From an uncultured archaeon (GTDB lineage Archaea; Asgardarchaeota; Lokiarchaeia; Sigyniarchaeales; SOKP01): a stretch of DNA of 64,000 nt. The stretch is from NCBI GenBank assembly GCA_964508365.1, contig CAZDTP010000012.1, positions 9,573-73,572 of the forward strand, given 5' to 3'. A program made the translations under genes and the position numbers. The notes under the pieces are model-generated. The model was given only the letters and a program-made list of their open reading frames with translations, ran no database searches and had not been told where the DNA came from. This document shows positions 9,573 to 28,802 of the stretch, piece after piece (the stretch's first letter is position 1; every line of letters starts with the position of its first letter).

Positions 9573-11030
9573 TTAGTTTTTATTAGATAGTGTACAATAC
9601 AACGCAAAAACGAAGTAAGCTCCCATAGGAATCAATAGAATCCAAAATTCGCTTGGCAAGAAAATTTCGACTTGAAGAATCATCGAGATAAAGCTTATAA
9701 TTAGAAAGCCCGTCCATATACTTAATATACGTGTATTTAGTGGTCTTTTAATGACAAAATGGTATATTATCGCAGCGATTGCATAAAGTATAATCACCAT
9801 AAGCGGTATTGGAATCCAGAGTCCTTGTAACCAGAAGGTTAAAAACAACCCGCAAGGAAATAGAATGAAAAAATTGAGGTAATATAATATCCTTCTTGTT
9901 AAATCTTCTTGATGATCAATTTTATACCAGATTATTCCTAACCAAATAAATAGAATCCATGCAGTTACTAAATCGATTAGATCAAAAGGATCGAATGGAA
10001 CATCCATTCCATAGTGAGTCCCCCAGTAAGCCGTGATCATCGCATATCCCAATATCTGGGTGAGCAAAATGTGATATGTCGATTTTCCGATTAAAGAAAT
10101 TGTTCTCGAGATTTTTGCATTAGATGTATTGCGTAAATAGTTAAGTGCAAGCAAGACTAGGAATGCGGAGTACGGAAAGACCAAAAAATGATAGTCTCCT
10201 CTTAGGAGAGGTGTGCCATTAAGCCTGAATCGAAAGTCAAAAAATTGATAAGCAATTAGGTATACCAAGCTAATTGGAAATAATATCCACATGAAGCAAT
10301 TTCTTTTTTCAGTAAGCTTATGACCAAAAGAAAACCACATTCCCAAACCTACTGCAGAAAGATAAAATAAGACGCTATTCATGAACAAGCTTAAGTAATG
10401 TGCTTCTTCCCAAGTTGTTATATCACCTATAATGAAAAAAACAGTAATTTGCAGTACAATTTCCACGACAAAGGTTAAAATTAACGTTATTACTGGTTTT
10501 TTAGTAAAACCCCAATATAGTAATGGTACGACGAGAATTGATTGCAATAAAACGGGGATGAACCAATTACCCGGTCCCCAAAAAGGCAGTATCAAATAAA
10601 ACAGGTTAATAATTCCGTGTTCTGGGGAATATTGAGTATCATACATTGCTATAAAATCGAATCCATACATAAATAAACCAATAAATGTTGATGCGGCATA
10701 CAGAATAAGAAAAGGGACAATATAGCGTAAGATTTTCTTCTTAAAATAACTCCAAGAATATAATTGTTTTAATGATAAATCACCTTGTCCTCTAAAAGAA
10801 TGCCCCATATTAAATCCAAGTATTACTAAAAAAACGGGTATGGAAATTCTTTCCCAGAGAGCGACCCCAATATCACTTTTGATGTTCCAAGAAACCATGT
10901 GATCAAAAATGACCAGAAATATCATTACCGCTTTTAGAAAATCAATCTGAAAGAAAGGGGTTCGTTCTTCAAATCCTCTTGAAGAGGATAGTTCTTCTTG
11001 CTCAGCACTCTGAAATTTGAGATCATTCAT
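9573..11030 (-). CDS. Acyltransferase 3 family (OafA-like) membrane protein
   Basis: QIDFLKAVMIFLVIFDH, IPVFLVILGF, ILRYIVPF, WFIPVL, GKSTYHILLTQ; many TM helices. Confidence 0.85.
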   Translation of the reverse strand: MNDLKFQSAEQEELSSSRGFEERTPFFQIDFLKAVMIFLVIFDHMVSWNIKSDIGVALWERISIPVFLVILGFNMGHSFRGQGDLSLKQLYSWSYFKKKILRYIVPFLILYAASTFIGLFMYGFDFIAMYDTQYSPEHGIINLFYLILPFWGPGNWFIPVLLQSILVVPLLYWGFTKKPVITLILTFVVEIVLQITVFFIIGDITTWEEAHYLSLFMNSVLFYLSAVGLGMWFSFGHKLTEKRNCFMWILFPISLVYLIAYQFFDFRFRLNGTPLLRGDYHFLVFPYSAFLVLLALNYLRNTSNAKISRTISLIGKSTYHILLTQILGYAMITAYWGTHYGMDVPFDPFDLIDLVTAWILFIWLGIIWYKIDHQEDLTRRILYYLNFFILFPCGLFLTFWLQGLWIPIPLMVIILYAIAAIIYHFVIKRPLNTRILSIWTGFLIISFISMILQVEIFLPSEFWILLIPMGAYFVFALYCTLSNKN

Positions 11031-15450: not shown

Positions 15451-18189
15451 TTATTCCGTCCTTTTTTTTAAAAAGAACATTATTACTGCGATAATGATCA
15501 GGGAAACCACGCTAACCAAACTGATTATCAAGCCGAGCATAAAGACAGGATCTAAAGCACCATCTTGCGGTATTTTTCCGGGATAATCGTTCGGATTCAG
15601 GGGATCGGTTCCTGATGCCAGCTCAATACCATCATAGTGCCCATCATCGTCCGAATCGTCATCGAGTGGATCCGTGCCGTACTTGATTTCAAACGCATCA
15701 TTCAGGTTATCTAAATCGGTATCAATCATCGTTGGGTCGGTTCCATGGCTGAGTTCATCGAGATCATCAAGCCCGTCATAATCGCAATCTCCAATGGTTA
15801 TACCTAATAAATCAATGACCGCTTGGATGGCATCAATATCACCTGTAAGGGTGTCATTAATTTGACTTAAATAAACCTCATTTTGCTGGGCCAACGCAAG
15901 AACGGTCTGAATGAGAGTGGCATTTCCTTCCACGTAGGAAATGATATCCATTAACTGGGTGGCATTTCCTTTGATATAGGTGAAGAGGAGATTGATTTCG
16001 CTATTAGCCTCTCCAAGCCACCCGATCACTTGCTGTAGTAGCGTGGCATTCTGCTTTAACTGAAAAATGATGTTATCAAGTAGAGTGGTATTTCCTTCTG
16101 TCCATTCAATCAAGTTTTGGATTAAAGTCCAGTTCCCAGCCAAGTCTGTTACCACATCCATGAGGATCGTCGCATTTCCTTCAAGGTATGTGAAGAGTAG
16201 GTCAATCTCGTCATTGGCATCTCCAAGCCAACCGATCACTTGTTGAAGTAAAGTGGCATTTTGCTCTAACTGATATATAATGGTATCGATGAGACTTGCA
16301 TTTCCATTGGTCCAATCTATTACTTTTTGGAGAAGCGTCCAGTTGCCTTCTAGATATAGCATGAGAGCATCAAAATCGTTCTTCCAAATCTTCGGAAAAT
16401 CATCGGAATTTGTCGCACTGCTGCCATACTCAAGTTCATAGCCATCTAAGAAATTATCACCATCAGTATCTACTGAAAAAGGATTAGTGCCCAATAATAA
16501 TTCAATGCTATCCAGTAATCCATCCCCGTCCCAATCAAAGTCTTCGGGAGAAATAAAAAAGTTTTCAAAAATGTAGTTATCAGTTGTATTACCTTCAAAT
16601 TCTTTATCATTATCCCATATCCAATTTCTATAGAGAATATTATGTTCTGAATCTTGAAAATCCACAGCAATTTGATTATTGGCTAAAATATTTCTAGTTA
16701 TGGTACTATAATTGCTGTATTCCAAGAAAATACCTTTATCCCCATTCGAACTGCAATTATTCTCCAAAACCGTGTTATATTCTGAAGTATATAAGTAAAT
16801 GCCATGCTCTCCATTCGAAGTGCAGTCATTATTCGAGAACATGTTATAATTACTCGACGAATAGAAACAAATCCCGTAACATCCAATTGAGGAGCAATTA
16901 TTCCTTGAGATCGTATTATTGTTAGATGAGTATGCGGAAATCCCGTGATCTTTTGAAGAACAGTTGTTCCCCGAAATCTTATTGTTGTCCGAGAGAATTA
17001 ATCTAATCCCGACATTATTATTCGAAGTACAGTCATTTTTCGAAACCGTATTATAATTACTCGAGGAATACATATGAATCCCACAAATTTCGTTTGAAGT
17101 ACAATCGTTTCCCGAAACCGTGTTATTGTTCGAAGAATCTAAGTAAATTCCTTCATCATTCGAAGTGCATATGTTCTCTGAGATCGTGTTATTACTCGAG
17201 GAATGAACATAAATTCCCTGATAATTCGAGGAGCAGTTATTCTCCGAGATCATGTTATTATTACTCGACAGGGGGTAAATTCCCCTGTAATTCGAAGAGC
17301 AGTTATTTCTCGAGACTTCGTTATCGCTCGCGCTTTGAAAGAGAATACCATTTTCACTATTTGATGAGCAAGTGTTCATTGAGATCTCGTTATTGGTCGA
17401 CCCATCTACTGCAATCCCAGTATGTCCATTCAAGGAGAATATGTTCCTTGAGATCGTGTTATTGCTGGATCCAGATACCACGATTCCCCAATTCAAATTC
17501 AAGGAGCAGTTGTTCCCCAATATGTATATTTTATTCGAGGTATATACATAAATTGCATGACTATCATTCGAAGTGCATTTGTTCTCTGAGATCGTGTTAT
17601 TGCTCGAAGATTGTAATAAAATCCCAACACTATTTGAAGTGCATGTGTTCTCTGAGATCGTATTATCATAGCTTGAATTCCTCAGATAAATTCCTAAGTA
17701 ATTCGATGAGCAGTTATTTCCCGAGATCACTATATTAGTCGAAGCTTGCAAGTAAATCCCATCTTGATTATCATGAATGGTATTATTATAGATTATAGCA
17801 TTTCTACTATTTTGTAGATGAATTCCCGCATCATAAATATCCGTTCCAGAGTTGAAAAGCGTGCAGTTTTTAATTACAAAATATACCGTTGTTCCAGAAA
17901 TATATAAACACGATCCCATCCCTTCCGCGTCAATCGTCCAGTTGGCGATGATATACGGATCATTCTCCGATCCATCTCCCCCTACAACACCGTTTTCAGT
18001 GGTAAATCCAGAATTGCTCGAGATTAGTATGGGAGCGTGGGTAAGACCACTGATTTTCAGATTGCGATTAAAAGGCAAGGAGTAAGTATCTATAGTTTCT
18101 CTTGTAATATCATTCCCAAAGTCCCAGATGAAGGTAAGTAAACCGAAAAAGATTAATCCACCGAGTAAAATGATTTTCATTTTTTTCAT
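15451..18189 (-). CDS. Cell-surface adhesin-like protein: beta-helix head, TSP3-like Ca-binding repeats, 14-residue-repeat stalk, C-terminal TM anchor
   Basis: NNTISENxCxSN units; DTDGD..LDGYE...GTDP...D repeats; GNATLL 14-mers; TM plus KKR. Confidence 0.88.
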   Translation of the reverse strand: MKKMKIILLGGLIFFGLLTFIWDFGNDITRETIDTYSLPFNRNLKISGLTHAPILISSNSGFTTENGVVGGDGSENDPYIIANWTIDAEGMGSCLYISGTTVYFVIKNCTLFNSGTDIYDAGIHLQNSRNAIIYNNTIHDNQDGIYLQASTNIVISGNNCSSNYLGIYLRNSSYDNTISENTCTSNSVGILLQSSSNNTISENKCTSNDSHAIYVYTSNKIYILGNNCSLNLNWGIVVSGSSNNTISRNIFSLNGHTGIAVDGSTNNEISMNTCSSNSENGILFQSASDNEVSRNNCSSNYRGIYPLSSNNNMISENNCSSNYQGIYVHSSSNNTISENICTSNDEGIYLDSSNNNTVSGNDCTSNEICGIHMYSSSNYNTVSKNDCTSNNNVGIRLILSDNNKISGNNCSSKDHGISAYSSNNNTISRNNCSSIGCYGICFYSSSNYNMFSNNDCTSNGEHGIYLYTSEYNTVLENNCSSNGDKGIFLEYSNYSTITRNILANNQIAVDFQDSEHNILYRNWIWDNDKEFEGNTTDNYIFENFFISPEDFDWDGDGLLDSIELLLGTNPFSVDTDGDNFLDGYELEYGSSATNSDDFPKIWKNDFDALMLYLEGNWTLLQKVIDWTNGNASLIDTIIYQLEQNATLLQQVIGWLGDANDEIDLLFTYLEGNATILMDVVTDLAGNWTLIQNLIEWTEGNTTLLDNIIFQLKQNATLLQQVIGWLGEANSEINLLFTYIKGNATQLMDIISYVEGNATLIQTVLALAQQNEVYLSQINDTLTGDIDAIQAVIDLLGITIGDCDYDGLDDLDELSHGTDPTMIDTDLDNLNDAFEIKYGTDPLDDDSDDDGHYDGIELASGTDPLNPNDYPGKIPQDGALDPVFMLGLIISLVSVVSLIIIAVIMFFLKKRTE

Positions 18190-18500: not shown

Positions 18501-18986
18501 TTATGATTTTTGCTCAGGAATGATTATAGTGTGGTCTTCTTTAATTCTATCCAAGACAAGTTGAGTCTTTACTTCTTCTACTTCTGGAAGATTGCGAAGA
18601 TTTTCTATAAGATTCATTGAATCATTATGGTCTAAGCATTTAGCCATAATAAAGATAGGATAGTCTCCCGTAATAATATAAGCGTATTTAATTTGATTCA
18701 TTCGTTCGATTTCTTCTTTAATTTGCTCAAGAGGTCGCCTTGAATTAACTCTGAGCGATGCCATCACCATTTCACGATATCCTAATTTTCGACAATCAAT
18801 GATAGCCATGTATTTTTTAATTAGAGTTTCTTCTAATTTTTGAATTCTAGTTCGAATAGCTGTTTGACTCATATCTGTCTTTTCAGCTACTTCCCGAATG
18901 GTCATTTTACCATCTTCTTGTAATAATTCTAAAATTCGTTTATCAACATTATCTATGTTACCATTTGTCAAGCTTACTGATACCAT
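18501..18986 (-). CDS. Lrp/AsnC family transcriptional regulator, divergent from the tusA-dsr-hdr operon
   Basis: DNVDKRILELLQEDGKMTIREVAEKTDMSQTAIRTRIQKLE HTH; ITGDYP in the C-terminal RAM domain. Confidence 0.92.
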   Translation of the reverse strand: MVSVSLTNGNIDNVDKRILELLQEDGKMTIREVAEKTDMSQTAIRTRIQKLEETLIKKYMAIIDCRKLGYREMVMASLRVNSRRPLEQIKEEIERMNQIKYAYIITGDYPIFIMAKCLDHNDSMNLIENLRNLPEVEEVKTQLVLDRIKEDHTIIIPEQKS

Positions 18987-19235
18987 TTAATTTTCACTTT
19001 AAATCTGTTCTTAATCTTGTTCTCTAATACTTAAATTAGTTTAACTTTTATAAAAATTTTTTCACTAATAATTCTAATTCTGTTAGTTTTTTTAATAACT
19101 TAAATACGATTCTTTTAAATTAAAAAACTATGATTTAAATAACAAGTTATATTTTTATTTAGTAAAGAATACCAGAATAGTTTTTTTATGGTATTAAAAC
19201 AAGAAAAACAAAAAAAAAAACTAAAGTGAAAAAAA

Positions 19236-19460
19236 ATGGCTGATAAAACATTAAATGCAATCGGTTTAAAATGTCCCATGCCAGTTTTAAAAACGAAGAA
19301 GGAACTGAAAGGAATGACTTCAGGGCAGGTCTTAGAGCTTATTGTCGATGATAAAGGAGCTTTAAAAGACATTCCAGCCTTATTAGGGAAAACTGGGGAT
19401 GAATTACTCGAAACTAATGAATCTGATGATCAAGTAGTTTTCTTGATTAAAAAAGCATGA
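19236..19460 (+). CDS. tusA: TusA/SirA family sulfur carrier
   Basis: LNAIGLKCPMPVLKTKKEL (CPxP), GQVLELIVDD. Confidence 0.92.
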   Translation: MADKTLNAIGLKCPMPVLKTKKELKGMTSGQVLELIVDDKGALKDIPALLGKTGDELLETNESDDQVVFLIKKA

Positions 19461-19488
19461 ACTTGATAATTTATTTGAGGGACGAGCG

Positions 19489-19857
19489 ATGACGACATAT
19501 ACATTCTTTATTAGTACAGAACCTTATAAATTTGAGGTTACAGATTCGCTAATTGAACTTTGTAAGGCTATCATAAAAAAGGGAAACTCCATCAAGGGAT
19601 TATTCTTTTTTGGATCGGGTGTCTACAACTTAAAGGGAGACATTAGTGCTGGAGCAACGATACGCAATTTACCTAAAAAGTTACAAGATTTTGCTCTTGA
19701 GAACAATATTCCTGTATCGGGTTGTAGTACATGGGTAAGTTTAACTGGTCTAAAGGAAGAGGAATTTATTGAAGGTGCTACTGAAGAAGGGTTAGGTGAC
19801 TTTTCAAATTGGTCAGTAGAATCTGATAAAATAATAGTTTTTGGAACGGGGGGATAA
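19489..19857 (+). CDS. dsrE: DsrE/TusD family sulfurtransferase subunit
   Basis: ISTEPY, LFFFGSGVYN, Cys in VSGCSTW at the usual active-site position; first of an E-F-H triplet. Confidence 0.75.
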   Translation: MTTYTFFISTEPYKFEVTDSLIELCKAIIKKGNSIKGLFFFGSGVYNLKGDISAGATIRNLPKKLQDFALENNIPVSGCSTWVSLTGLKEEEFIEGATEEGLGDFSNWSVESDKIIVFGTGG

Positions 19858-19859
19858 TA

Positions 19860-20228
19860 ATGGTGGAATCAGTAGTAATTATAACAGACCAATCACCCGT
19901 AGGTAAGAATTCTGCAGCAGAAGCAATTAGGATTGGATCTGGTTTTGTGGCGTTAGGAGAATATATCAATTGTCAAGTGGTATTTATGGGTGATGCGTTA
20001 TACTTGTTGAATAAAAATGCAGTTCCTAATGCTATTGACATGGATTCTAATGATGAGGTACTTGAAATCGCAGATTTATCAGATTTAGAGTTGTACATAA
20101 TAGATACAGACTTGAAGAATGCTGGCATGACAGAAGATGATCTAATTGAATATGAGAGTTTAAAGATAATATCTATTGAGGAATTATCTGATTTAATAGA
20201 TCAAGCAGATACATGCTTTAGATTCTAA
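19860..20228 (+). CDS. dsrF: DsrF/TusC family protein
   Basis: QSPVG..SAAEAIRIG, VVFMGDALYLL. Confidence 0.75.
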   Translation: MVESVVIITDQSPVGKNSAAEAIRIGSGFVALGEYINCQVVFMGDALYLLNKNAVPNAIDMDSNDEVLEIADLSDLELYIIDTDLKNAGMTEDDLIEYESLKIISIEELSDLIDQADTCFRF

Positions 20229-20241
20229 TGGAGGGAAAAAG

Positions 20242-20571
20242 ATGGAAATAGTATACTTATTCGGATTTAGTGAAAGGACAGGGAACCATTTAGAAAGGCT
20301 ATTGCCCTTATTAAAAGTGCAAATTCAGAAAGGAGCAAATGTCGGTTTAGTCTTTATACACGATGGAGTGATTGGATTAAACACCAATGGATCAATTCCA
20401 AGCAAATTGGAAGAATTATTAAACTCTAATATTACATTAAAAGCCATGGTTCCAGATATGAAAGCACGAGGAATACCCATTGAGAGCTTGCATGATAAAA
20501 TAAAACCAATTGAATATGATGAGTTAGTAGAAATATTAGATAATACTCAAAAAATAATTTCATGGATGTAA
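20242..20571 (+). CDS. dsrH: DsrH/TusB family protein
   Basis: LVFIHDGVIG, PDMKARGI, IEYDELVEIL...KIISW. Confidence 0.8.
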   Translation: MEIVYLFGFSERTGNHLERLLPLLKVQIQKGANVGLVFIHDGVIGLNTNGSIPSKLEELLNSNITLKAMVPDMKARGIPIESLHDKIKPIEYDELVEILDNTQKIISWM

Positions 20572-20695
20572 AATAATCAAAAATTAAAAATTTTTTAATA
20601 ATTAATAAATCAAAAATAACGGTCATAGATTTGACGTCAATAATTAAGAACAACAAAAAAATTAAAAATAAAATAAAAAATAGAAGTGAAAAAAT

Positions 20696-21112
20696 ATGGG
20701 AGAAACAATAAACTATATAGTAAAGGACAAATCATTCGAAAAGTTCGCAATGATGATGCTCCTAGGTACCACAGCAGACGCTATGGAAACAAAATCCAAC
20801 TTTTTCTTCACCTTTTGGGGTTTGAACTTATTAACCAAAAAGTTTAAACCTAAAGTTGCTGGAATGCCTACACCTATGAAGGGTATGGGTGCAAAGATTT
20901 TTAGAAAAAGGATGGCAAAGTTTGGAATTGAAGATCCATGGGGTATGATTAAAGACGCTGTCGAAAATGGTAATATGAAATTATTTCCATGCCAAATGAC
21001 AATGGATTTAATGGGAATTAAGCGAGAAGATATGCTTGATTTTGTTGAAGATCCTGTAGGTGCCGCAACATTCTTAGAAATGTGTGAAGGCGGAAAAATG
21101 GTCTCACTATAA
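20696..21112 (+). CDS. DsrE2-like (DrsE_2) sulfur-relay protein
   Basis: FFFTFWGLNLL, FPCQMTMDLMGI, VGAATFL. Confidence 0.85.
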   Translation: MGETINYIVKDKSFEKFAMMMLLGTTADAMETKSNFFFTFWGLNLLTKKFKPKVAGMPTPMKGMGAKIFRKRMAKFGIEDPWGMIKDAVENGNMKLFPCQMTMDLMGIKREDMLDFVEDPVGAATFLEMCEGGKMVSL

Positions 21113-21165
21113 ATAAATTTTTAAAAATTTTTTTTTTAATTCAAATTAATGAAATAGTGGAAAAA

Positions 21166-21723
21166 ATGTCAGAAACAAAAGAAGAACACCGAGAATTTAA
21201 GACAGATGAAGATTTCGATAAAGATTATTTTAAAAATATTGAAAGAAAGTCAAATATTTGGCAATGTATTCAGTGTGGAACGTGCACGGCCAGCTGTGAG
21301 TCTGGACGTTGGACTGCACTTAAAACAAGATTAATCATTAGAAAAGTATGTTTAGGAGATCTTAGTGTTCTTAAAGACCCCGATATTTGGCTTTGTACAA
21401 CTTGTTATCAATGTTATGAACGCTGTCCTCGTGATGTAAGGCCAACTGATGTAATAATGGAATTAAGAAATTACGCTACTAAATTAGGAAATATTTCGCC
21501 ATCTCACCGAGCGGTTGTTGGCTATTTAAAGAATTTTGGACATGCCGTACCTATAAATGACGAGATTAGAAAACGAAGGGTCGAATTAGGATTAGAAGAA
21601 CTCCCTCCAACTGCGTTTAAATATAAACAAGAGGGAGATGATAAAGATTTAAAGAAATTTGAAGAACATTTGTTTGATCTTCCTCCAGTTAAGGAGGAAA
21701 AAAAGAAGGAAGAGGAGAAGTAA
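21166..21723 (+). CDS. hdrC: Heterodisulfide reductase subunit C
   Basis: CIQCGTCTASC and CTTCYQCYERCP ferredoxin motifs, GHAVP; ORF track starts at GTG 21157. Confidence 0.93.
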   Translation: MSETKEEHREFKTDEDFDKDYFKNIERKSNIWQCIQCGTCTASCESGRWTALKTRLIIRKVCLGDLSVLKDPDIWLCTTCYQCYERCPRDVRPTDVIMELRNYATKLGNISPSHRAVVGYLKNFGHAVPINDEIRKRRVELGLEELPPTAFKYKQEGDDKDLKKFEEHLFDLPPVKEEKKKEEEK

Positions 21724-21726
21724 GAA

Positions 21727-22644
21727 ATGGTAAAAGAACATACATTTTCATTTTTTCTCGGCTGTCTCATGCCAAATAGATATCCCGCAATTGAAAAAGC
21801 AACAAAGTTTGTAATGGGGAAACTTGGATACGAGCTTTTGGACATGGAACGTGCTAGTTGCTGTCCGGCTCCAGGAGTATTTCGATCATTTAATAAATTT
21901 GATTGGATGGTAGCAGGTGCTAGAAATCTCTGCATTGCTGAAAAACTCGATGCAGACATTCTTACGGTTTGTAATGGATGTTTTGGAACATTACAAGAGA
22001 TTAACAAACACTTGAAAGAAAACGAAGATCACAGAGAATTAGTAAATGAAAAATTAAAACTGCTCGGAGATTACGAGTTTAAAGGTACGATTGATGTCCG
22101 GCACATTGCTGAAGTATTAGGGTACGAAGTAGGCCCATGGGGCATAGAAGATCTAATTACACGAAAAGTAAACGCGCATGCTGCTGTACATTATGGGTGT
22201 CATTTTCTAAAACCTACAAGAATTCGAGAGATTGAAAGCTCAGAAGGACCTACCATCATCGAAGATTTTATTGAGGTATTAGGAGTAGAATCTGTTAGAT
22301 TTAAGGAGCAGTTAACTTGTTGTGGTGCTGGTGGAGGTGTAAAAGCGTATTCTGGTGATACCAGTATGACGATTTTTGGAGAAAAAATGAAAAATATTGA
22401 CGAAGTTGAGCCAGATTTTATTTTGGATATATGTCCTTTCTGTCATTTACAATTTGAGACGGGACAAGATTATCTAAATAAAAATAAGGGTTGTAATTAC
22501 GATTATCCAGTTATTCATCTTTCCCAACTCGTTGCTTATTGTATGGGTATGGACCAAGAATTTGTTGGTCTTCAATATCAAATGATGGGAAAGGATTACA
22601 TTTTTGGTGGAGAAGAAGTAAAAAAAGAAGAGGGGTCGATTTAG
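21727..22644 (+). CDS. hdrB: Heterodisulfide reductase subunit B
   Basis: FLGC, SCCPAPG, VCNGC, HYGCH, CCGAGGG, CPFCHLQF (two CCG domains). Confidence 0.95.
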   Translation: MVKEHTFSFFLGCLMPNRYPAIEKATKFVMGKLGYELLDMERASCCPAPGVFRSFNKFDWMVAGARNLCIAEKLDADILTVCNGCFGTLQEINKHLKENEDHRELVNEKLKLLGDYEFKGTIDVRHIAEVLGYEVGPWGIEDLITRKVNAHAAVHYGCHFLKPTRIREIESSEGPTIIEDFIEVLGVESVRFKEQLTCCGAGGGVKAYSGDTSMTIFGEKMKNIDEVEPDFILDICPFCHLQFETGQDYLNKNKGCNYDYPVIHLSQLVAYCMGMDQEFVGLQYQMMGKDYIFGGEEVKKEEGSI

Positions 22645-24660
22645 ATGGCCGTTAAAGAAGATAAAATGGAAAAAAGCAAAACTGAATCGGGAGACTTTGA
22701 AGAACCCAGAATTGGCGTTTTTGTATGTCATTGTGGTCATAACATTGCTGGAACTGTGGATGTCGCAAAAGTGGCAAATTACGCAAAAGAGTTACCAAAT
22801 GTTGTAAAAGCGGAGCATTATATGTTTATGTGTTCAAAACCAGGCGTTCAGATGGTCAAAGATTCGATTAGAGAATTAGGGGTTAATAGAACTGTTGTAG
22901 CAAGCTGTTCAAAAAATCAACATGGTTTGACTTTTGCGAAAGCTATTGCTGAAGAGGGTATTAATAAACACAAACACCAACAAGTAAACATAAGAGAGTA
23001 TTGTAGTTGGGTTCATAAAAAAGACGAGGAAAAAGCAACTGCAAAAGCACTTCGATTGGTCGAAGCTGGAGTAAATCGAGCTCGAAAACTTGAAGATGTA
23101 GAAACTAGACGAGTATCGACGACTAAAGCAGCTTTAGTTATTGGTGGGGGTATCGCTGGCCTTAGATCCGCTCATGATTTGGCAGAATTAGGAATACCCG
23201 TGTTTTTGGTAGAAAAAAATTCTACAATTGGAGGGCACATGACACAATTAAATAAAACATTTCCAACTTTAGAATGTCCCCAATGCTCGATTTCACCTTT
23301 AACTAATGGAGTAGCGAATCATCCTTTAATTGAACTTTATACAAACGCCCAAATTAAGAGCGTTGAGGGTTCATTAGGAAATTTTGAAGTTGAGATTGAA
23401 ATAAAGCCTCGCTATGTTAAAGATAACTGTACTTCTTGTGGCGAATGTTCTTTACACTGTCCAGTAGAAGTGCCTAGTGAATGGGACAAAGGAATGTCTA
23501 TGCGAAACGCTATTTACAAAGCATATCCGCAAGCAATTCCCGCAACATTCGTAAGGGACAAAAAATCTTGTATTGAGTGTAATACATGTATTAACATATG
23601 TCCAGTCCAAGCGATTGATTTTTCGATGGAAACTGAGACTAAAACGGTGAAAGTTGGTTCGATTGTAGTTGCTGTGGGATATGATGAATACGATCCTACG
23701 GAAATAGAACCATATCATTATGGAAAAGAGGGATATGAAGATGTTATTACTCAATTAAAATTAGAACGAATGTTATCACCAACATCTCTTACTAATTCTG
23801 AAGTGTTGCGACCATCTGACGGAAAACTACCAAAGAGTATTGTAATGATTCAATGCGTGGGTAGTAGAAACGATCAAGTTGGCAATCAGTATTGTACTGG
23901 TGTATGCTGCAAATTTGCGATAAAAAACGCTCGAATTGTAAAAGAAATGTATCCTGATACCGATGTGACGATTTGTTATATAGATATACGAACTCCAGGA
24001 TTAAATTTCGAAGAGTTATATAAATCTGCTCAAGAAGTTGGAGTCAGATTCATCCGAGGTAGACCTTCGGAAATTATTAAAGACCCTATAAATGGAGAAT
24101 TAAAAGTTATAGTAGAGGACACCTTAAGCATGACACCTTTACAATTAAAAGCTGATTTGGTTGTGTTGTCAGCAGCGATGGTGCCACCCGAAGGAATAGG
24201 ACCACTTGGTTCTAAGCTTAAAGTTTTACGTTCCAAGGAAGGTTTTTTAAAAGAATTTCATATTAAGATGAACCCTACATTGAGTAGTAAAGGAGGAATT
24301 TTCTTAGCGGGTGCGATACAAGGACCAAAAGACATTTCTGAAACCGTAGCGCACGCGGGGAGTGCTGCTGCTTTAGCTGCTGCACCTCTAGTTAAAGGTT
24401 ATATAGAAAAGGAAATGTTGGTACCAGTTATAGATTATGATTTATGCGTTAATTGTGGAATTTGTAAGACCATTTGCGCACCAGCCGCAATCGATATTGA
24501 TGATAATGGAAGACCATCAGTCAATGAGATAGCGTGTAGATCATGTGGAATGTGTATGCCAAGTTGTCCGACAATGGCGATTCAACTGATTAATTTTACA
24601 GAGGATCAAATGCATGATGAAATAATTGCCGTATCGGGCGGAGGTGCCGTGTGCGAATGA
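22645..24660 (+). CDS. hdrA: Heterodisulfide reductase subunit A (flavin-bifurcating, all-Cys form)
   Basis: RIGVFVCHCG, NIRE.CSWVH, VIGGGIAG, KTFPTLECPQC, IQCVGSR...YCTGVCC, GPKDI, C-terminal ferredoxin motifs. Confidence 0.96.
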   Translation: MAVKEDKMEKSKTESGDFEEPRIGVFVCHCGHNIAGTVDVAKVANYAKELPNVVKAEHYMFMCSKPGVQMVKDSIRELGVNRTVVASCSKNQHGLTFAKAIAEEGINKHKHQQVNIREYCSWVHKKDEEKATAKALRLVEAGVNRARKLEDVETRRVSTTKAALVIGGGIAGLRSAHDLAELGIPVFLVEKNSTIGGHMTQLNKTFPTLECPQCSISPLTNGVANHPLIELYTNAQIKSVEGSLGNFEVEIEIKPRYVKDNCTSCGECSLHCPVEVPSEWDKGMSMRNAIYKAYPQAIPATFVRDKKSCIECNTCINICPVQAIDFSMETETKTVKVGSIVVAVGYDEYDPTEIEPYHYGKEGYEDVITQLKLERMLSPTSLTNSEVLRPSDGKLPKSIVMIQCVGSRNDQVGNQYCTGVCCKFAIKNARIVKEMYPDTDVTICYIDIRTPGLNFEELYKSAQEVGVRFIRGRPSEIIKDPINGELKVIVEDTLSMTPLQLKADLVVLSAAMVPPEGIGPLGSKLKVLRSKEGFLKEFHIKMNPTLSSKGGIFLAGAIQGPKDISETVAHAGSAAALAAAPLVKGYIEKEMLVPVIDYDLCVNCGICKTICAPAAIDIDDNGRPSVNEIACRSCGMCMPSCPTMAIQLINFTEDQMHDEIIAVSGGGAVCE

Positions 24661-25109
24661 GTGATTGCGAAACTCCTGATGAATATGTTCAAGAAAGGAT
24701 TCAAAATGTTGTTGTATTCATGTGCAACGAATGTGGTCAAGGAAGCGCAAATACTGCGGGTGTCGCTCGAATGTCGTACGATGCTGCAATTAGAATAATT
24801 AGAGTTCAATGCACGGGTCAAGTCGGACCGATTCAGATTATGGAAGCGTTAAATAACGGTGCTGATGCAGTCGCTTGCGTAGGATGTTGTTTAGGCGCCT
24901 GTCATTTTTTTAATGGTAATATAATTTCGATGCACAGAATTAAATTGATGAAAAAACTCTTTAAAGAGTTAGGTTATAGCGATCAATTTGTAAACCAATA
25001 CACTTCGAGAGCTGCGGAGGGTGAAACTGCTGTTGGCGATTTCGAAGATATTATAGACCGATTAACAACTGCAATTCTAGATAAGGGGACGATAAAAGAT
25101 GGATGTTAA
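24657..25109 (+). CDS. mvhD: MvhD-type [2Fe-2S] subunit
   Basis: FMCNEC, RIIRVQCTGQV, GADAV, GC..GACHF..GN; ATG overlaps hdrA TGA. Confidence 0.9.
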   Translation: MSDCETPDEYVQERIQNVVVFMCNECGQGSANTAGVARMSYDAAIRIIRVQCTGQVGPIQIMEALNNGADAVACVGCCLGACHFFNGNIISMHRIKLMKKLFKELGYSDQFVNQYTSRAAEGETAVGDFEDIIDRLTTAILDKGTIKDGC

Positions 25110-26340
25110 AGTATTCCAATTTAACGGTTGTAATAAGTGCTTCAATGAGACTGTATTACTTAAACAAGACGCTAAATATAAAGTCGAGTTTGTCTCTGAT
25201 CCAAAGAATTGGAAAGGAGAAAAAGTTGACATATCAGTTATTACAGGGTATTTACTTCCTAACGATTTGGAGCACGTGGAACGTATAAAGAACAATTCAA
25301 ATAAAGTAATTGCTTATGGAGACTGTCCAGCTACAGGTGGAGTATTTGCTTTAGCAAATCAAAAAGGGCACGACGTTAAACCTTTAGCAACCTTAATTGA
25401 AGGTTCAAGTAGTGTATATGGATGTTTAGGCGAAATTGAAGAATTAAAATTAGCGATTGACGGAAGAGATGTTCCAATATTAAAAAATTTATGTCAAATT
25501 TGCTCCAGAAAAGCAACATGTGACTATTTAGAAAAAATTAATAGACAAATTGAATTAGAGGATTCTGAAACATGTTTTAACGACTTAGGTTTTCTCTGTA
25601 GTGGCTTTACTGCGACTGAGTGTAAAGAAAAATGTATTGATTACAATACTCCTTGTAGAGGTTGTAAACCAAGCATAGATCGTTCTGGAATTCGCATGTT
25701 AGCAATGTTCGGCACATTAGCAGGGAACATTGAAATTGCTACCGAACATTCAGTAAAGGGAGCAACTGACAAATTAGGCGACGCTGACGACGATCTAACA
25801 GACAGCTTACCTGATATCGTCGGCAATTTTTTCAGATTTACATTACCTACTTCTGGTTTGCCAAAAGGTAAAATCTCTTCCTCAGGAACTTTATTAGAAG
25901 ATGTTTTCATTGGTAGGCTGATTGAGGAGATCCCTTTGATAACCGGACTTATAGGGGGGGCTAAATCAATATCTTTTACGCTTAAATTCATAAAGGCATA
26001 CGAGGAAGCAAATCAAATAGAAGTAAGCGAACAAACGAAAAAATACCGGAACGAGCTCCTACAATTAGAAAAAGACCTACAAGATGCTATAATTAAAGAA
26101 GATGCATCGAAATACAAAGAGATTACAAATAAAATCCGATTTATTGCTGGAAATATGAACTTATCAAACGTATTTTTTGGTGGATTCAAGTCAATTATCG
26201 ATCCTAACGATGACTTTAACAATTATAAAACCCATGTTTTTGATGTGGTGGATGGAACCTATAAAAATGGTTCGATAGAATATACCATTAATCCAGATGG
26301 TATTATAAAAGAAATTAAAATTAACGAGGAATTATTATGA
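25099..26340 (+). CDS. MvhG-like Fe-S protein fused to a degenerate [NiFe]-hydrogenase large-subunit fragment
   Basis: aa 1-252: GCNKC, AYGDC.ATGG, GCL, CQIC, CF..G.LC.G....C...C...PCRGC, GNFFRFTLP; aa about 265-320 resemble the MvhA L1 region without its Cys. Confidence 0.8.
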   Translation: MDVKVFQFNGCNKCFNETVLLKQDAKYKVEFVSDPKNWKGEKVDISVITGYLLPNDLEHVERIKNNSNKVIAYGDCPATGGVFALANQKGHDVKPLATLIEGSSSVYGCLGEIEELKLAIDGRDVPILKNLCQICSRKATCDYLEKINRQIELEDSETCFNDLGFLCSGFTATECKEKCIDYNTPCRGCKPSIDRSGIRMLAMFGTLAGNIEIATEHSVKGATDKLGDADDDLTDSLPDIVGNFFRFTLPTSGLPKGKISSSGTLLEDVFIGRLIEEIPLITGLIGGAKSISFTLKFIKAYEEANQIEVSEQTKKYRNELLQLEKDLQDAIIKEDASKYKEITNKIRFIAGNMNLSNVFFGGFKSIIDPNDDFNNYKTHVFDVVDGTYKNGSIEYTINPDGIIKEIKINEELL

Positions 26341-28802
26341 GTTTTGAACTATTAAAAAGTGAGATTATTGACGCGGGTTTATGCCAAGGCTGTGGTTTAT
26401 GTTCAGGGTACTGCAAACATATTGAAATGGAGACGCTAAGACCAATTTTAAAAGATTATTGTATCCTTGAAAGAGAAGGACAGGATTGCGGTAAGTGTTA
26501 CCAAAACTGCCCTCAAGTATTGCAGAAAAAATTTAAGGAGCTACAACCCTTAGGAATTTATTCCTTAAGAAGTAAAGACTCTAAAATATTAGAAAAAGCG
26601 TCAAGTGGAGGATTTGTTACTGCAATCGCAAAGCATCTCCTCGAGGAAAAGGTTTTATCCGAAATTGTAATGGTGCAAAACATTGACGATTTACCTAAGG
26701 CAAGCAGTGTAACTAATCCTGAAGATGTAATTCAAAGGGCAGGGATCGTATATGGGCGATCTGGGGTTTTAGAAAAGTTAGTAGAAGTTTCTGGAGACAA
26801 TTTAGAACCTTTAGGCATCGTGGGAGTTCCATGTGAGATCAGAGGAGCTGCTGAAATGGGCGTAGAAATGAACCGGGAAATCCTTAAAATAGGGTTATTC
26901 TGTAATTCAAGTATCAGAACGGAAGAAACAGATAGAGGTTTAGTTTGTTCACCATGTTGTGGAGGTTGTCCTTCAGGTGTTAATGCACAAGGTTATATAT
27001 CGTTAATACGAGAACATAAATACTTAGAAGCTGTAGAATTAATCCGCAAAGACAATCCATTGCCTTCTATTTGCGGAAGAATCTGTACGCATGAATGCGA
27101 ACACGGTTGCACGTTAATCGGCTCAGATCATCCAGTGGCGATAAGAGAACTAAAAAAATTTATAACAGAGTACGAAATTAAGCAAGGGAAACAAAAAACT
27201 GTAAAGACTAAGAAAAAGCTAGGAAAGAAAGTAGCAATAATAGGTGCTGGACCAGCAGGTTTGACAGCAGGATATTATTTATCGCTTAAAGGATATTCCC
27301 CAACGATTTTTGAAAAAACCGATCATACTGGCGGAATGCTTCGATTTGGAGTGCCTCAATTCAGATTACCTAACTACGTACTAGATTACGATATAGAGAC
27401 GATAAAAAATGCTGGCGTGGAAATTATATTCAACAAACCATTAGGTCCTGACATGACTATTGAAGACCTAAAAAACGACGGATTTAAAGCCATTTTTATC
27501 GCGACGGGTCAATATAAACCAAGAACATTACACTTAGAAGGAGAGGAACTTCCGAACGTACATGTTGCTATTAATTTCCTTATCGATAGAAAATATCGCG
27601 ATTGGCAGAAACAGCAAGAGTTTAAAGGTAAAACCATAGGAATAATAGGAGGTGGAGCGGTAGCCGTTGATGTTGCACAGACAGCACTGAGGTTAGGCGC
27701 AGAAAAAATAGATCTTGTTGATGTCATGACTGAAAAGGATCTTGAACTCGTAATACGAGAGATTCCTGAAGAAGAATTAAAATTCATGGAATATCATTTT
27801 AATACTTCCGTATCAAAAATTACTGAAGGAGAAGGAGAGGAACTATTATTAAATAGTTATAAAATTCAATGGAGCAATGCAGATGATACTGGCAGAAGGT
27901 CAATTAATAAAATCGAGGGTTCTGATTTTGAGATCAATGCAGACGCTATAGTTATCGCTGTTGGTCAAGCCGTTGATTTTAATTTAATAGATATCGCAAC
28001 TGATAATAAACTCAAAAAAGAGCGAAATAAAATTGAGATCAATCCAATAACATTTGAGACTAATATTCCAGGAATATTTGCTGGTGGAGATACAATTACA
28101 AACTCAAAAGCTGTTGCAATTGCCGCAATCGCTCACGGTAAAGAAACAGCTATCTCAATAGATCGATATTTAAATGGAGAAGACCTTTCAGCGGGTCGTT
28201 ATCAACAAAACAAAATGTTTTTCGAAGGAATTTCGAAAACTCCAAAAGACTATTCATTAAAACCAGAATCATTAGAAGAAGCTACTGAAGATGTCCAATG
28301 GAATTTTGAGGAGATCGAAGCAAAATTTAGCGAAGAAATGGCGCTAGCAGAGGCTAGACGTTGTTTAAGTTGTAATCATTACTGCTCGCATTGCCAAGAT
28401 TTTCCTGCAATTTATTCAGACTTTACAGCTGGAGAGGTTGGTTCCAAACCAGGCTTCACAACCGTCGTAGTTTGGACAGAAAGAGGTAAAGAAATCATTG
28501 AAAAAGCCTTAAACCAAGGATTATTTGAAGAAGGCAGCGTTAACAAGGACGAATTGAAGAAAGCAATCACTCTAAAATCAAAACGAGAAATGGAAGTTTT
28601 AGAAAAAACTCCAAGGCAACAAGTTTTAGACTACATCACTCTTCAAGGTCCAACCACAATTAGCAACATGTCTGAAACCTTAAATTTAGAAACTAAAAAA
28701 GTACGCTACGAAGCTTTACGATTGGTTCAATTGAATCAAATTGAGATGAATATTGAACCGGGCTTCGAAGAACCAATGTTTTCACCTATATGTGAAGATT
28801 AA
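26337..28802 (+). CDS. FrhB/FdhB-like protein with inserted GltD/NfnB-type FAD/NAD(P)H oxidoreductase and C-terminal winged helix
   Basis: 2x[4Fe-4S], SSGG.VT, VGVPCEI, IGLFC | C...CP, CGRIC...CE..C, GAGPAG, GGG.VAVD, FAGGD, EARRCLSC | C.HC.DF, DFTAGEVGS, TTVVVWTERG | HTH-like tail. Confidence 0.85.
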   Translation: MSFELLKSEIIDAGLCQGCGLCSGYCKHIEMETLRPILKDYCILEREGQDCGKCYQNCPQVLQKKFKELQPLGIYSLRSKDSKILEKASSGGFVTAIAKHLLEEKVLSEIVMVQNIDDLPKASSVTNPEDVIQRAGIVYGRSGVLEKLVEVSGDNLEPLGIVGVPCEIRGAAEMGVEMNREILKIGLFCNSSIRTEETDRGLVCSPCCGGCPSGVNAQGYISLIREHKYLEAVELIRKDNPLPSICGRICTHECEHGCTLIGSDHPVAIRELKKFITEYEIKQGKQKTVKTKKKLGKKVAIIGAGPAGLTAGYYLSLKGYSPTIFEKTDHTGGMLRFGVPQFRLPNYVLDYDIETIKNAGVEIIFNKPLGPDMTIEDLKNDGFKAIFIATGQYKPRTLHLEGEELPNVHVAINFLIDRKYRDWQKQQEFKGKTIGIIGGGAVAVDVAQTALRLGAEKIDLVDVMTEKDLELVIREIPEEELKFMEYHFNTSVSKITEGEGEELLLNSYKIQWSNADDTGRRSINKIEGSDFEINADAIVIAVGQAVDFNLIDIATDNKLKKERNKIEINPITFETNIPGIFAGGDTITNSKAVAIAAIAHGKETAISIDRYLNGEDLSAGRYQQNKMFFEGISKTPKDYSLKPESLEEATEDVQWNFEEIEAKFSEEMALAEARRCLSCNHYCSHCQDFPAIYSDFTAGEVGSKPGFTTVVVWTERGKEIIEKALNQGLFEEGSVNKDELKKAITLKSKREMEVLEKTPRQQVLDYITLQGPTTISNMSETLNLETKKVRYEALRLVQLNQIEMNIEPGFEEPMFSPICED

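Follow-up and report, generated by a model that had tools for sequence, protein, structure and literature searches.

An FrhB-like protein of Lokiarchaeia split by a circularly permuted NfnL-type flavin cassette: a probable nicotinamide-linked subunit of a hydrogenase-less Hdr complex

Background

Among the described complexes that tie nicotinamide cofactors to heterodisulfide reductase (Hdr), FlxABCD-HdrABC of Desulfovibrio is NADH-dependent. The NfnL-like domains of NfnA, from the Bfu-type NfnABC of Caldicellulosiruptor (PDB 9BOV, 9BP5) and Thermococcus sibiricus (9N5U), and of StnC, from StnABC of Sporomusa ovata (8OH5), oxidise NADPH and are non-bifurcating sites at which nicotinamide electrons enter a chain of clusters (PMC11829005). 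GltD/NfnB-type modules inserted into HdrA have likewise been read as NAD(P)H entry points, the one in type III HdrA (HdrA9-11; ANME-1, Bathyarchaeota) as linking NAD(P)H directly to Hdr (PMC9012536, PMC12054007). Here we report the analysis of a 64,000-nucleotide stretch of DNA from an uncultured lokiarchaeon (the window; positions 9,573 to 73,572 of contig CAZDTP010000012.1, assembly GCA_964508365.1), in which a single uninterrupted open reading frame (ORF) on the + strand, 26337..28802, encodes an 821-residue fusion of an FrhB-like protein, an inserted NfnL-type module and a C-terminal winged helix, at the end of an operon for Hdr and Mvh-like proteins. Lokiarchaeia, both cultured strains included, serve as metabolic models for the archaeal ancestor of eukaryotes, and the route by which they re-oxidise NADH during syntrophic amino-acid degradation is unsettled.

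The host of the inserted module belongs with FrhB, FdhB, FpoF and the N-terminal part of Fsr (4OMF, 7NP8, 8RJA, 7BKB), a family whose [4Fe-4S] cluster is marked by the motif PC...C...CxxC (PMC10229431, PMC3591093). In FrhB the cluster ligands are C104, C134, C192 and C195; a three-stranded sheet (residues 148-172) between the second and third ligands bears a conserved turn, 163-IGKGK, that stands beside coenzyme F420 and has been assigned to its phosphate, two small residues, S209 and V210, lie next to the deazaflavin, and a basic C-terminal helix was placed at the F420 channel (Mills et al. 2013, PMC3591093). The lid of Fsr comprises residues 204-253, within the motif PCX40CX54CX2C (PMC10229431).

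Domain architecture and borders of the insertion

An earlier note, made from the sequence by a model, had proposed that this FrhB-like protein is split by a GltD/NfnB module and ends in a winged helix, and both domain parsing with Pfam and the existence of an uninserted ortholog confirm that arrangement. FrhB_FdhB_N matches residues 75-146 (53 bits against a gathering score of 22). Fer4_20 (residues 194-284, 93.1 bits) and Pyr_redox_2 (residues 297-601, 94.5 bits), both above threshold, together with the cysteines for two [4Fe-4S] clusters, bear out the claim that the inserted unit is a complete one of the NfnB/GltD type. FrhB_FdhB_C (66 bits) matches in two pieces, residues 159-198 (profile 4-47) and about 637-736 (profile from about 52/79 to 148), about 440-490 residues apart instead of forming one contiguous C-terminal domain, and the NCBIfam GltD-type model PRK12771 covers residues 204-687, with frhB/FpoF models matching on either side.

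The N-terminal ferredoxin domain (residues 1-66; 26337..26534) contains eight invariant cysteines (16, 19, 22, 26, 42, 51, 54 and 58) and is predicted to bind two [4Fe-4S] clusters. It aligns with the ferredoxin domains that open Fsr (7np8_A) and FwdI/ACDS-zeta (8rja_E, 8riu_B), a two-cluster domain also present in FpoF; its predicted local distance difference test score (pLDDT) is low in the full-length structure model. The N half of the FrhB-like fold (residues 67-197; 26535..26927), delimited by FrhB_FdhB_N, the first FrhB_FdhB_C piece and PDB alignments, carries SGGFVT (residues 90-95), the GG(I/V)VT motif of the flavin adenine dinucleotide (FAD) helix in the family, as well as PC166 and LFC189 (the latter in IGLFC, residues 185-189), which the PDB alignments identify as the first two ligands of the FrhB-type cluster. 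After the insert, which has sites for two [4Fe-4S] clusters besides its FAD and NAD(P) folds, the C half (residues 683-750; 28383..28586) opens with C683-x2-C686-QDF, part of YCSHCQDF (residues 682-689), continues with AGE700VGS and closes with the basic C-terminal helix LKSKRE. It aligns with FrhB (3zfs_C, 192-265), 8rja_E (272-337) and Fsr (255-325) and keeps the long conserved segment of the family, CxxCxDF...G..GS...TV. The last domain is the winged helix-turn-helix (HTH; residues 756-817; 28602..28787), recognised from a structure model of the tail through its Foldseek and VIA-align matches.

The borders of the insertion follow from an ortholog, P0271, of an Asgard family labelled Thorarchaeota by NCBI (Thor-type below), in which the FrhB-like protein has about 346 residues and is encoded in the same operon. 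In BLASTP, residues 1-197 of the fusion protein align to P0271 at 42% identity and residues 683-808 at 38%, with nine residues of P0271 between the two blocks. Since P0271 aligns to these segments only, the insert comprises residues 198-682 (26928..28382); the insertion proposed in the earlier note stands, and its borders, given there as residues 203-680, are corrected. All four cysteines C166, C189, C683 and C686 are invariant and coincide in alignments with the cluster ligands of FrhB and Fsr, and their spacing, PC166-X22-C189-X493-C683-X2-C686, places the cassette at the position of the lid. Canonical FrhB paralogs of the same genome have a lid of 58 residues and contiguous FrhB_C matches (130-138 bits over profile 2-149).

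The Thor-type ortholog has only 17 residues at the lid position in 31 of 32 clusters, which means that the lid had already been lost in the lineage that received the cassette, and it carries the winged-helix tail, which is therefore older than the insertion. The ancestor would accordingly have been a lid-less FrhB-like Fe-S flavoprotein with a winged-helix tail, a form still kept in Thorarchaeota-type genomes, and in Lokiarchaeia the cassette would have been gained in the loop between the second and third cysteine ligands of the FrhB [4Fe-4S] cluster. With the state before insertion (Thor-type) and the state after it (Lokiarchaeia) in the same operon, this is a clean natural case of domain insertion.

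An assembly or frameshift artefact is ruled out by the presence of the same single ORF in 77 loci, two closed genomes among them. Two names that the protein might attract do not fit it. The F420-dependent glutamate synthase family (FGltS) joins FrhB to GltB-type domains, the partner here being GltD/NfnL, and Pfam and NCBIfam detected no glutamate synthase large-subunit domains in the fusion protein or the operon. Sulfide dehydrogenase/NfnI, the automatic name of the ortholog in Promethearchaeum syntrophicum MK-D1, describes only the insert, the one part that resembles SudA/NfnB, and Pfam found no NfnA/SudB-like gene in the operon.

A circularly permuted cassette

Among solved structures the insert comes closest to the NfnL-like domains of NfnA (9N5U, 9BOV) and StnC (8OH5), with canonical NfnB, GltD and DPD ranking behind them; the top Foldseek matches of the model are 9n5u_A, 9bov_A, 8oh5_C and 5jca_L. 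Against canonical NfnB (4YLF_B), HMMER aligns insert positions 9-419 with NfnB 45-462 and insert positions 450-484 with NfnB 9-43, in swapped order, and two swapped domains are obtained against 5jca_L as well. Because the N-terminal helix of NfnB and its RCLxC motif come after the Rossmann folds here, the cassette is circularly permuted; the displaced helix with its RCLSC occupies residues 653-680 (28293..28376), where positions 4-35 of the Fer4_20 profile match. Residues 200-681 are colinear with residues 97-568 of NfnA (9bov_A) and StnC (8oh5_C), about 480 residues at 35-42% identity that include the C-terminal helix and RCLxC segment, and NfnA and StnC therefore carry the same permuted cassette. 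What is new here is that the GltD unit is permuted and of the type found in these two proteins. In all three the cassette, with sites for FAD and two [4Fe-4S] clusters, is set between other Fe-S domains. The host, however, is an FrhB-like fold here, as against a 2Fe-2S domain and an Fdh/NuoG-like domain in NfnA and StnC, and the partners are Hdr, MvhD and MvhG-like proteins, as against HydB/HydC-like NfnB and NfnC; Pfam found neither an Fdh/NuoG-like domain nor HydB/HydC-like partners, the context of BfuABC, in the protein or the operon.

Through the permutation, both termini of the cassette come together at its distal [4Fe-4S] cluster. If the ligands are assigned according to the numbering of Csac NfnA (PMC11829005), the distal cluster would be bound by C207, C258, C676 and C679, and the proximal one by C211, C250 and C254, with C246 as the candidate fourth ligand. 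All eight residues are invariant among 29 aligned members, as are all 20 cysteines needed for five [4Fe-4S] clusters in the protein. In the stretch C676-x2-C679-x3-C683-x2-C686, two putative distal-cluster ligands and two ligands of the FrhB cluster are contiguous within 11 residues, and the corresponding motif, RCxxCNxxCxxCQDF, is present in 121 of 121 members.

The same type of cassette occurs in other hosts: it splits a ferredoxin domain in P0167, lies within an HdrA-MvhD fusion in P0131 and separates HdrC-like from HdrB-like domains in P0126. A permuted flavin module whose ends meet at one Fe-S cluster has been accommodated in FrhB-like, HdrC/HdrB-like, HdrA, MvhD and NfnA/StnC proteins. 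The genome from which the window derives encodes an HdrC-NfnL-HdrB protein of its own (P0325, 920 residues; L098:694-3453, - strand, about 2848-5607 of contig C82 of genome G000), with an HdrC-like part for two [4Fe-4S] clusters, a permuted NfnL cassette (53% identity to the insert) and a pair of HdrB-like CCG domains, and it may be a one-protein NADH-linked reductase of the heterodisulfide type. Next to its gene lies one for a canonical NfnB/GltD-like protein of 494 residues. In a cassette tree the FrhB-hosted and HdrC/HdrB-hosted cassettes form one clade (Shimodaira-Hasegawa-like approximate likelihood ratio test, 100) in which the two are intermingled; this quick IQ-TREE run leaves the number and direction of transfers unresolved. 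Type III HdrA also has a GltD/NfnB module inserted in an Fe-S domain of an Hdr-complex subunit, although there the site is the inserted ferredoxin domain of HdrA and here the host is an FrhB-like terminal subunit. The HdrA of the present operon is an ordinary 671-residue protein in which Pfam finds neither Fer4_20 nor a second Pyr_redox_2 match.

Nucleotide preference of the cassette

In alignments of NfnA, StnC and NfnB, the second strand of the second Rossmann fold ends in vvYRR, followed by emPA. The corresponding beta-alpha-beta unit of the fusion protein (residues 433-466; 27633..27734; GGGAVAVD ... LVDVM) ends in L460-V461-D462-V463-M464, followed by DLEL, so that D462-V463-M464 stand at the Y-R-R position, in contrast to the NADPH motif of NfnA and StnC. 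An LVD(I/V)M-like motif extends across the 121 full-length members, apart from two LVEIM variants and one YRR member; YRR is retained in 75 of 99 other cassette relatives. The same derived form, FVDILTE, is seen in the paralog P0325. A strand that has lost both arginines and ends in a newly acquired acidic residue is the classical mark of a preference for NAD over NADP. The suggestion in the earlier note that VDVM is a signature of the NADH rather than the NADPH type is borne out, YRR being replaced in 120 of 121 members, and from these motifs NADH would probably be the ligand of the cassette. One family member from a Promethearchaeum sp. metagenome-assembled genome (P0122 at L077; 47% identity) keeps VIYRR...ELPA, and the cassette tree places it apart from the main fusion clade, a pattern suggestive of either a switch in specificity or the replacement of a cassette inside the family.

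Distribution, synteny and a proposed electron path

The fusion gene is the last of a + strand operon in which, by Pfam and NCBIfam, HdrC (21157-21723), HdrB (21727-22644), HdrA (22645-24660) and MvhD (24651-25109) are followed by an MvhG-like Fe-S protein of 413 residues (25099..26340; Pfam Oxidored_q6 and a partial NCBIfam VhuG match), the upstream partner; the stop of its gene and the start of the fusion gene overlap. At its head the operon carries sulfur-relay genes (19236..21112): a candidate TusA-like ORF, named only after the annotation of the syntenic gene in MK-D1, and two DsrE, a DsrH and a DsrE2-like gene, all four recognised by Pfam. Neither the ORF list nor Pfam yielded a gene for a NiFe hydrogenase large subunit in the operon; such genes are present elsewhere in the genome.

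At 70% identity or above, more than 120 protein clusters of about 820 residues contain the complete set of domains, and clustering at 50% adds just two further full-length representatives, so the fusion proteins form one tight family. A scan of species-representative genomes returned the 77 loci mentioned above, all from Promethearchaeota/Lokiarchaeia-type metagenome-assembled genomes except two closed chromosomes and one named genus. Identities to orthologs are 55% for MK-D1, 54% for Ca. Lokiarchaeum ossiferum (both closed) and 51% for Sigynarchaeum. Strong full-length matches occur in about 78 of 399 sampled genomes of the phylum, nearly all of them from the family of the window genome or two sister families of the same order. 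The gene order DsrE-DsrE-DsrH-DsrE2-HdrC-HdrB-HdrA-MvhD-MvhG-like-fusion is found in every locus with enough flanking sequence, MK-D1 and L. ossiferum included, and this strict synteny agrees with the place at the end of an Hdr/MvhD/MvhG-like wire that the earlier note had given the protein. In Thor-type genomes (for example L095:8521-15953, - strand, genome G311, and L096:3764-11176, + strand, genome G319) the order is HdrC-HdrB-HdrA-MvhD-MvhG-like-FrhB-like-DsrE-DsrE-DsrH, with the two DsrE genes and DsrH downstream of the FrhB-like gene instead of at the head of the operon as in the window; no DsrE2 was found at these loci and no GltD-like gene within 10 kb of the operons.

The six genes from hdrC to the fusion gene (21157-28802 in the window) correspond to DSAG12_01145-01150 in MK-D1. 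The MK-D1 ortholog, DSAG12_01150, holds the same operon position and was listed, with an expression value of 304 compared with 318 for HdrA, in Supplementary Table 4 of Imachi et al. (2020), where the insertion, the permutation, the loss of the lid and the tail are not described. A literature search found no other paper on DSAG12_01150 and no description of the fusion architecture.

We consider it likely, with a probability of roughly 0.6, that the fusion protein belongs to a hydrogenase-less HdrABC-MvhD-MvhG-like complex as the subunit by which electrons enter (or leave), and most likely it is NADH rather than F420 that feeds this electron-bifurcating complex. The strict synteny supports complex formation with the Hdr and Mvh-like partners. 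In the PDB entry 7BKB, one of the matches of the fusion protein, FdhB is docked onto MvhD-HdrABC. A nicotinamide-linked subunit is suggested by homology on two sides: by analogy with NfnA and StnC the cassette FAD would be a non-bifurcating site at the end of the cluster chain (PMC11829005), and by analogy with Fsr the FrhB cluster would hand electrons on to the N-terminal ferredoxin domain (PMC10229431). NAD(P)H, most likely NADH, would thus give a hydride to the cassette FAD, from which single electrons would move over the proximal and then the distal [4Fe-4S] cluster to the FrhB-type cluster, and onward over the two clusters of the ferredoxin domain to the MvhG-like protein, MvhD and the bifurcating FAD of HdrA. 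The winged helix would most likely serve in docking or have a structural part, and electrons may also flow the opposite way. If this is true, Lokiarchaeia possess a direct, probably NADH-specific entry into a hydrogenase-less bifurcating HdrABC that travels with a sulfur relay.

In its logic such a complex resembles FlxABCD-HdrABC, which likewise joins an NAD(P)H-binding flavoprotein, an FrhB-related Fe-S protein and an MvhD-like protein to HdrABC and has no hydrogenase. FlxA, however, is a separate, unrelated, sulfhydrogenase-gamma-like subunit, whereas here an NfnL cassette lies inside the FrhB-like protein, which is moreover accompanied by an MvhG-like subunit and a sulfur relay. FloxABCD is listed for MK-D1 (Imachi et al. 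2020).

Several points weigh against the proposed role. The nucleotide fold retains GxGxxA, which one rule of thumb assigns to NADP (PMC12054007), and the exchange of EMPA for DLEL in addition to that of YRR for VDVM takes the nucleotide subdomain further than a mere change of specificity would; its ligand could be a different molecule, or it could have none. The quality of the full-length model is mediocre (pLDDT 68.7, predicted template modelling score 0.52, Fe-S loops below 50) and whole-model fold searches are dominated by the insert. The window genome encodes the F420 biosynthesis proteins CofD and CofH, and the LKSKRE helix at the F420 channel is conserved, although use of F420 in this organism appears quite doubtful to us. 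Finally, the Thor-type complex lacks any NfnL module, which means that the FrhB-like flavin must react with some partner or substrate independently of the cassette.

The winged-helix tail

A model of the tail (residues 736-821, built from 13 tails) reaches a pLDDT of 91-98 over its core (tail residues 21-80), with the topology H-H-H-beta-beta. The winged-helix fold proposed in the earlier note is thereby recovered, with three helices and a two-stranded wing, and the Foldseek (probability 1.00) and VIA-align matches (Z 10-11, root-mean-square deviation 1.7-2.8 A over 62-64 residues) are exclusively winged-helix proteins: MarR, ArsR, Zalpha, TFE, SelB and ESCRT-II. A profile of the tail retrieves the PKZ Zalpha domain among PDB sequences (E = 8e-4), although the signature Asn and Tyr of Zalpha are not matched by identical residues. 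No Pfam HTH model exceeds its threshold (15 bits against 27.6). Mean net charge is -2.2 over the 121 lokiarchaeal members and -3.8 over the 32 Thor-type members, and the wing loop (PGFEEP) is acidic. Helix 3, the 'recognition' helix, has the conserved basic residues K787, R790 and R795 in Lokiarchaeia and reads VHYHLLVLQQ, with neither Lys nor Arg, in the Thor-type orthologs.

We somewhat favour a docking or structural role for the tail, since it is acidic, is older than the insertion and has no Lys or Arg in helix 3 of its Thor-type versions. The redox-coupled DNA binding that the earlier note had considered is disfavoured on the same grounds, although a trigger enzyme, whose winged helix would bind DNA such as the operon promoter (about 19000-19235) according to the redox state of flavin or clusters, has a precedent in PutA, an enzyme with redox-dependent DNA binding. 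The true winged-helix fold, closest to DNA binders of the MarR, ArsR and Zalpha types, the basic residues of the lokiarchaeal helix 3 and the label 'predicted transcriptional regulator' given to some homologs by JGI pipelines all speak for it. Against these stand the acidic tail and wing, the Thor-type helix 3, the sub-threshold HTH models and unmatched Zalpha residues, and the presence of a dedicated Lrp-type regulator gene beside the operon and, in MK-D1, inside it; winged helices are, besides, also protein-docking modules, as the matches to ESCRT-II, SelB and TFE recall. On this evidence we think a DNA-binding trigger enzyme unlikely. More specific identities fare no better: the similarity to Zalpha does not extend to the residues that contact Z-DNA, and no DsrD profile matches the tail even at E <= 10.

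The FrhB-like flavin and F420

The earlier note had also proposed an F420-type entry point at the FrhB flavin, and this claim is not supported. FrhB has its lid at residues 135-191 and Fsr at 204-253; in the fusion protein the lid, with its IGKGK-bearing sheet, is missing, and the equivalent of the small Ser209, next to V210 in FrhB, is E700, a Glu or Asp in 121 of 121 members (Phe in the Thor-type orthologs). Furthermore, and unlike the F420-reactive members of the FrhB family, the fusion protein occurs in organisms in which no F420 biosynthesis genes were detected: CofD and CofH were not found in the fusion-bearing single-contig genomes that match MK-D1 (G142) and L. ossiferum (G138), in the fusion carriers G131, G139 and G141 (best CofH 29 bits against a cut-off of 374), or in 5 of 5 Thor-type genomes (87-98% complete) with the uninserted form, which have no cassette either. 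The FrhB-like FAD is probably retained and is probably not an F420 site. 'FrhB' annotations in Asgard genomes should not, therefore, be taken as evidence of F420 metabolism.

These data also bear on the idea that both flavins are substrate sites, the FrhB flavin reacting with F420H2 and the flavin of the insert with NAD(P)H, in a dual-input module or an F420:NAD(P) transhydrogenase. In its favour, the FAD and cluster motifs of the FrhB family are conserved, the basic C-terminal helix is kept, and the window genome has CofD (311.8 bits) and CofH (469.9 bits) above the cut-offs. CofD occurs in 129 of 134 genomes of the family of the window genome, with or without the fusion, and its presence within family f1 does not track that of the fusion; this, the missing lid, the acidic or Phe residue at the Ser209 position and the carriers lacking CofD and CofH make a second, F420-linked substrate site improbable.

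A further possibility is that the lid-less FrhB-like flavin has turned into an active site of a new sort, to which the co-conserved TusA/DsrE/DsrH relay delivers a substrate such as a protein persulfide, with the acidic winged helix docking the carrier. In that case the protein would be an NADH:(per)sulfide oxidoreductase connected to a bifurcating Hdr, and we know no description of such an enzyme. The FrhB-like flavin would then be the only non-Hdr redox site of the complex in Thorarchaeota, and Lokiarchaeia would have added an NADH module beside it; we regard this as a long shot. That the insert is degenerate, a structural or electron-storage element with no nucleotide substrate in a protein fed only by ferredoxin or another partner, is very unlikely as well: it would fit the loss of YRR and EMPA and a Thor-type complex that functions without the module, but the GAGPAG, GGMLRFGVPQFRLP and FAGGD motifs of the FAD fold, the GGGxVAxD loop and the cluster cysteines are invariant or nearly so among members 45-96% identical, which indicates purifying selection on both dinucleotide folds, and the derived FVDILTE is kept in the paralogous HdrC-NfnL-HdrB protein.

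Neighbouring genes and FrhB paralogs

Only the first 200 or so of the 413 residues of the MvhG-like protein match Oxidored_q6/VhuG, the C-terminal half having no profile match, and across the syntenic loci the protein is less conserved (about 68-70% identity) than HdrA, HdrB and HdrC (82-96%). A divergently oriented gene for an Lrp/AsnC-type regulator (18501-18986, - strand) lies immediately upstream of the operon. The operons of MK-D1 and L. ossiferum contain an internal ORF of about 170 residues, between the DsrE2-like gene and hdrC; that of MK-D1, DSAG12_01144, is annotated as an Lrp/AsnC regulator. The inverted repeats of the upstream region (18950-19500) are only AT-rich, low-complexity pairs and are uninformative.

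Several Lokiarchaeia genomes (e.g. G171:C36, G263:C59, G169:C8) contain open frames of 605-631 residues, the length of Fsr-type F420-dependent sulfite reductases, in which the matched part is the FrhB C-half; no such frame was found in the genome of the window. That genome does encode an FrhB paralog of 439 residues (L094:9-1328, + strand; contig C46 of G000, about 15508-16827) whose lid is normal and whose N-terminus is extended by about 95 residues that look HTH-like by eye only; kinship of this extension with the winged-helix tail is unsupported (hhalign probability 1.2%). Downstream of its gene lie a second FrhB paralog (370 residues) and then an HdrD-like Fer4+CCG protein.

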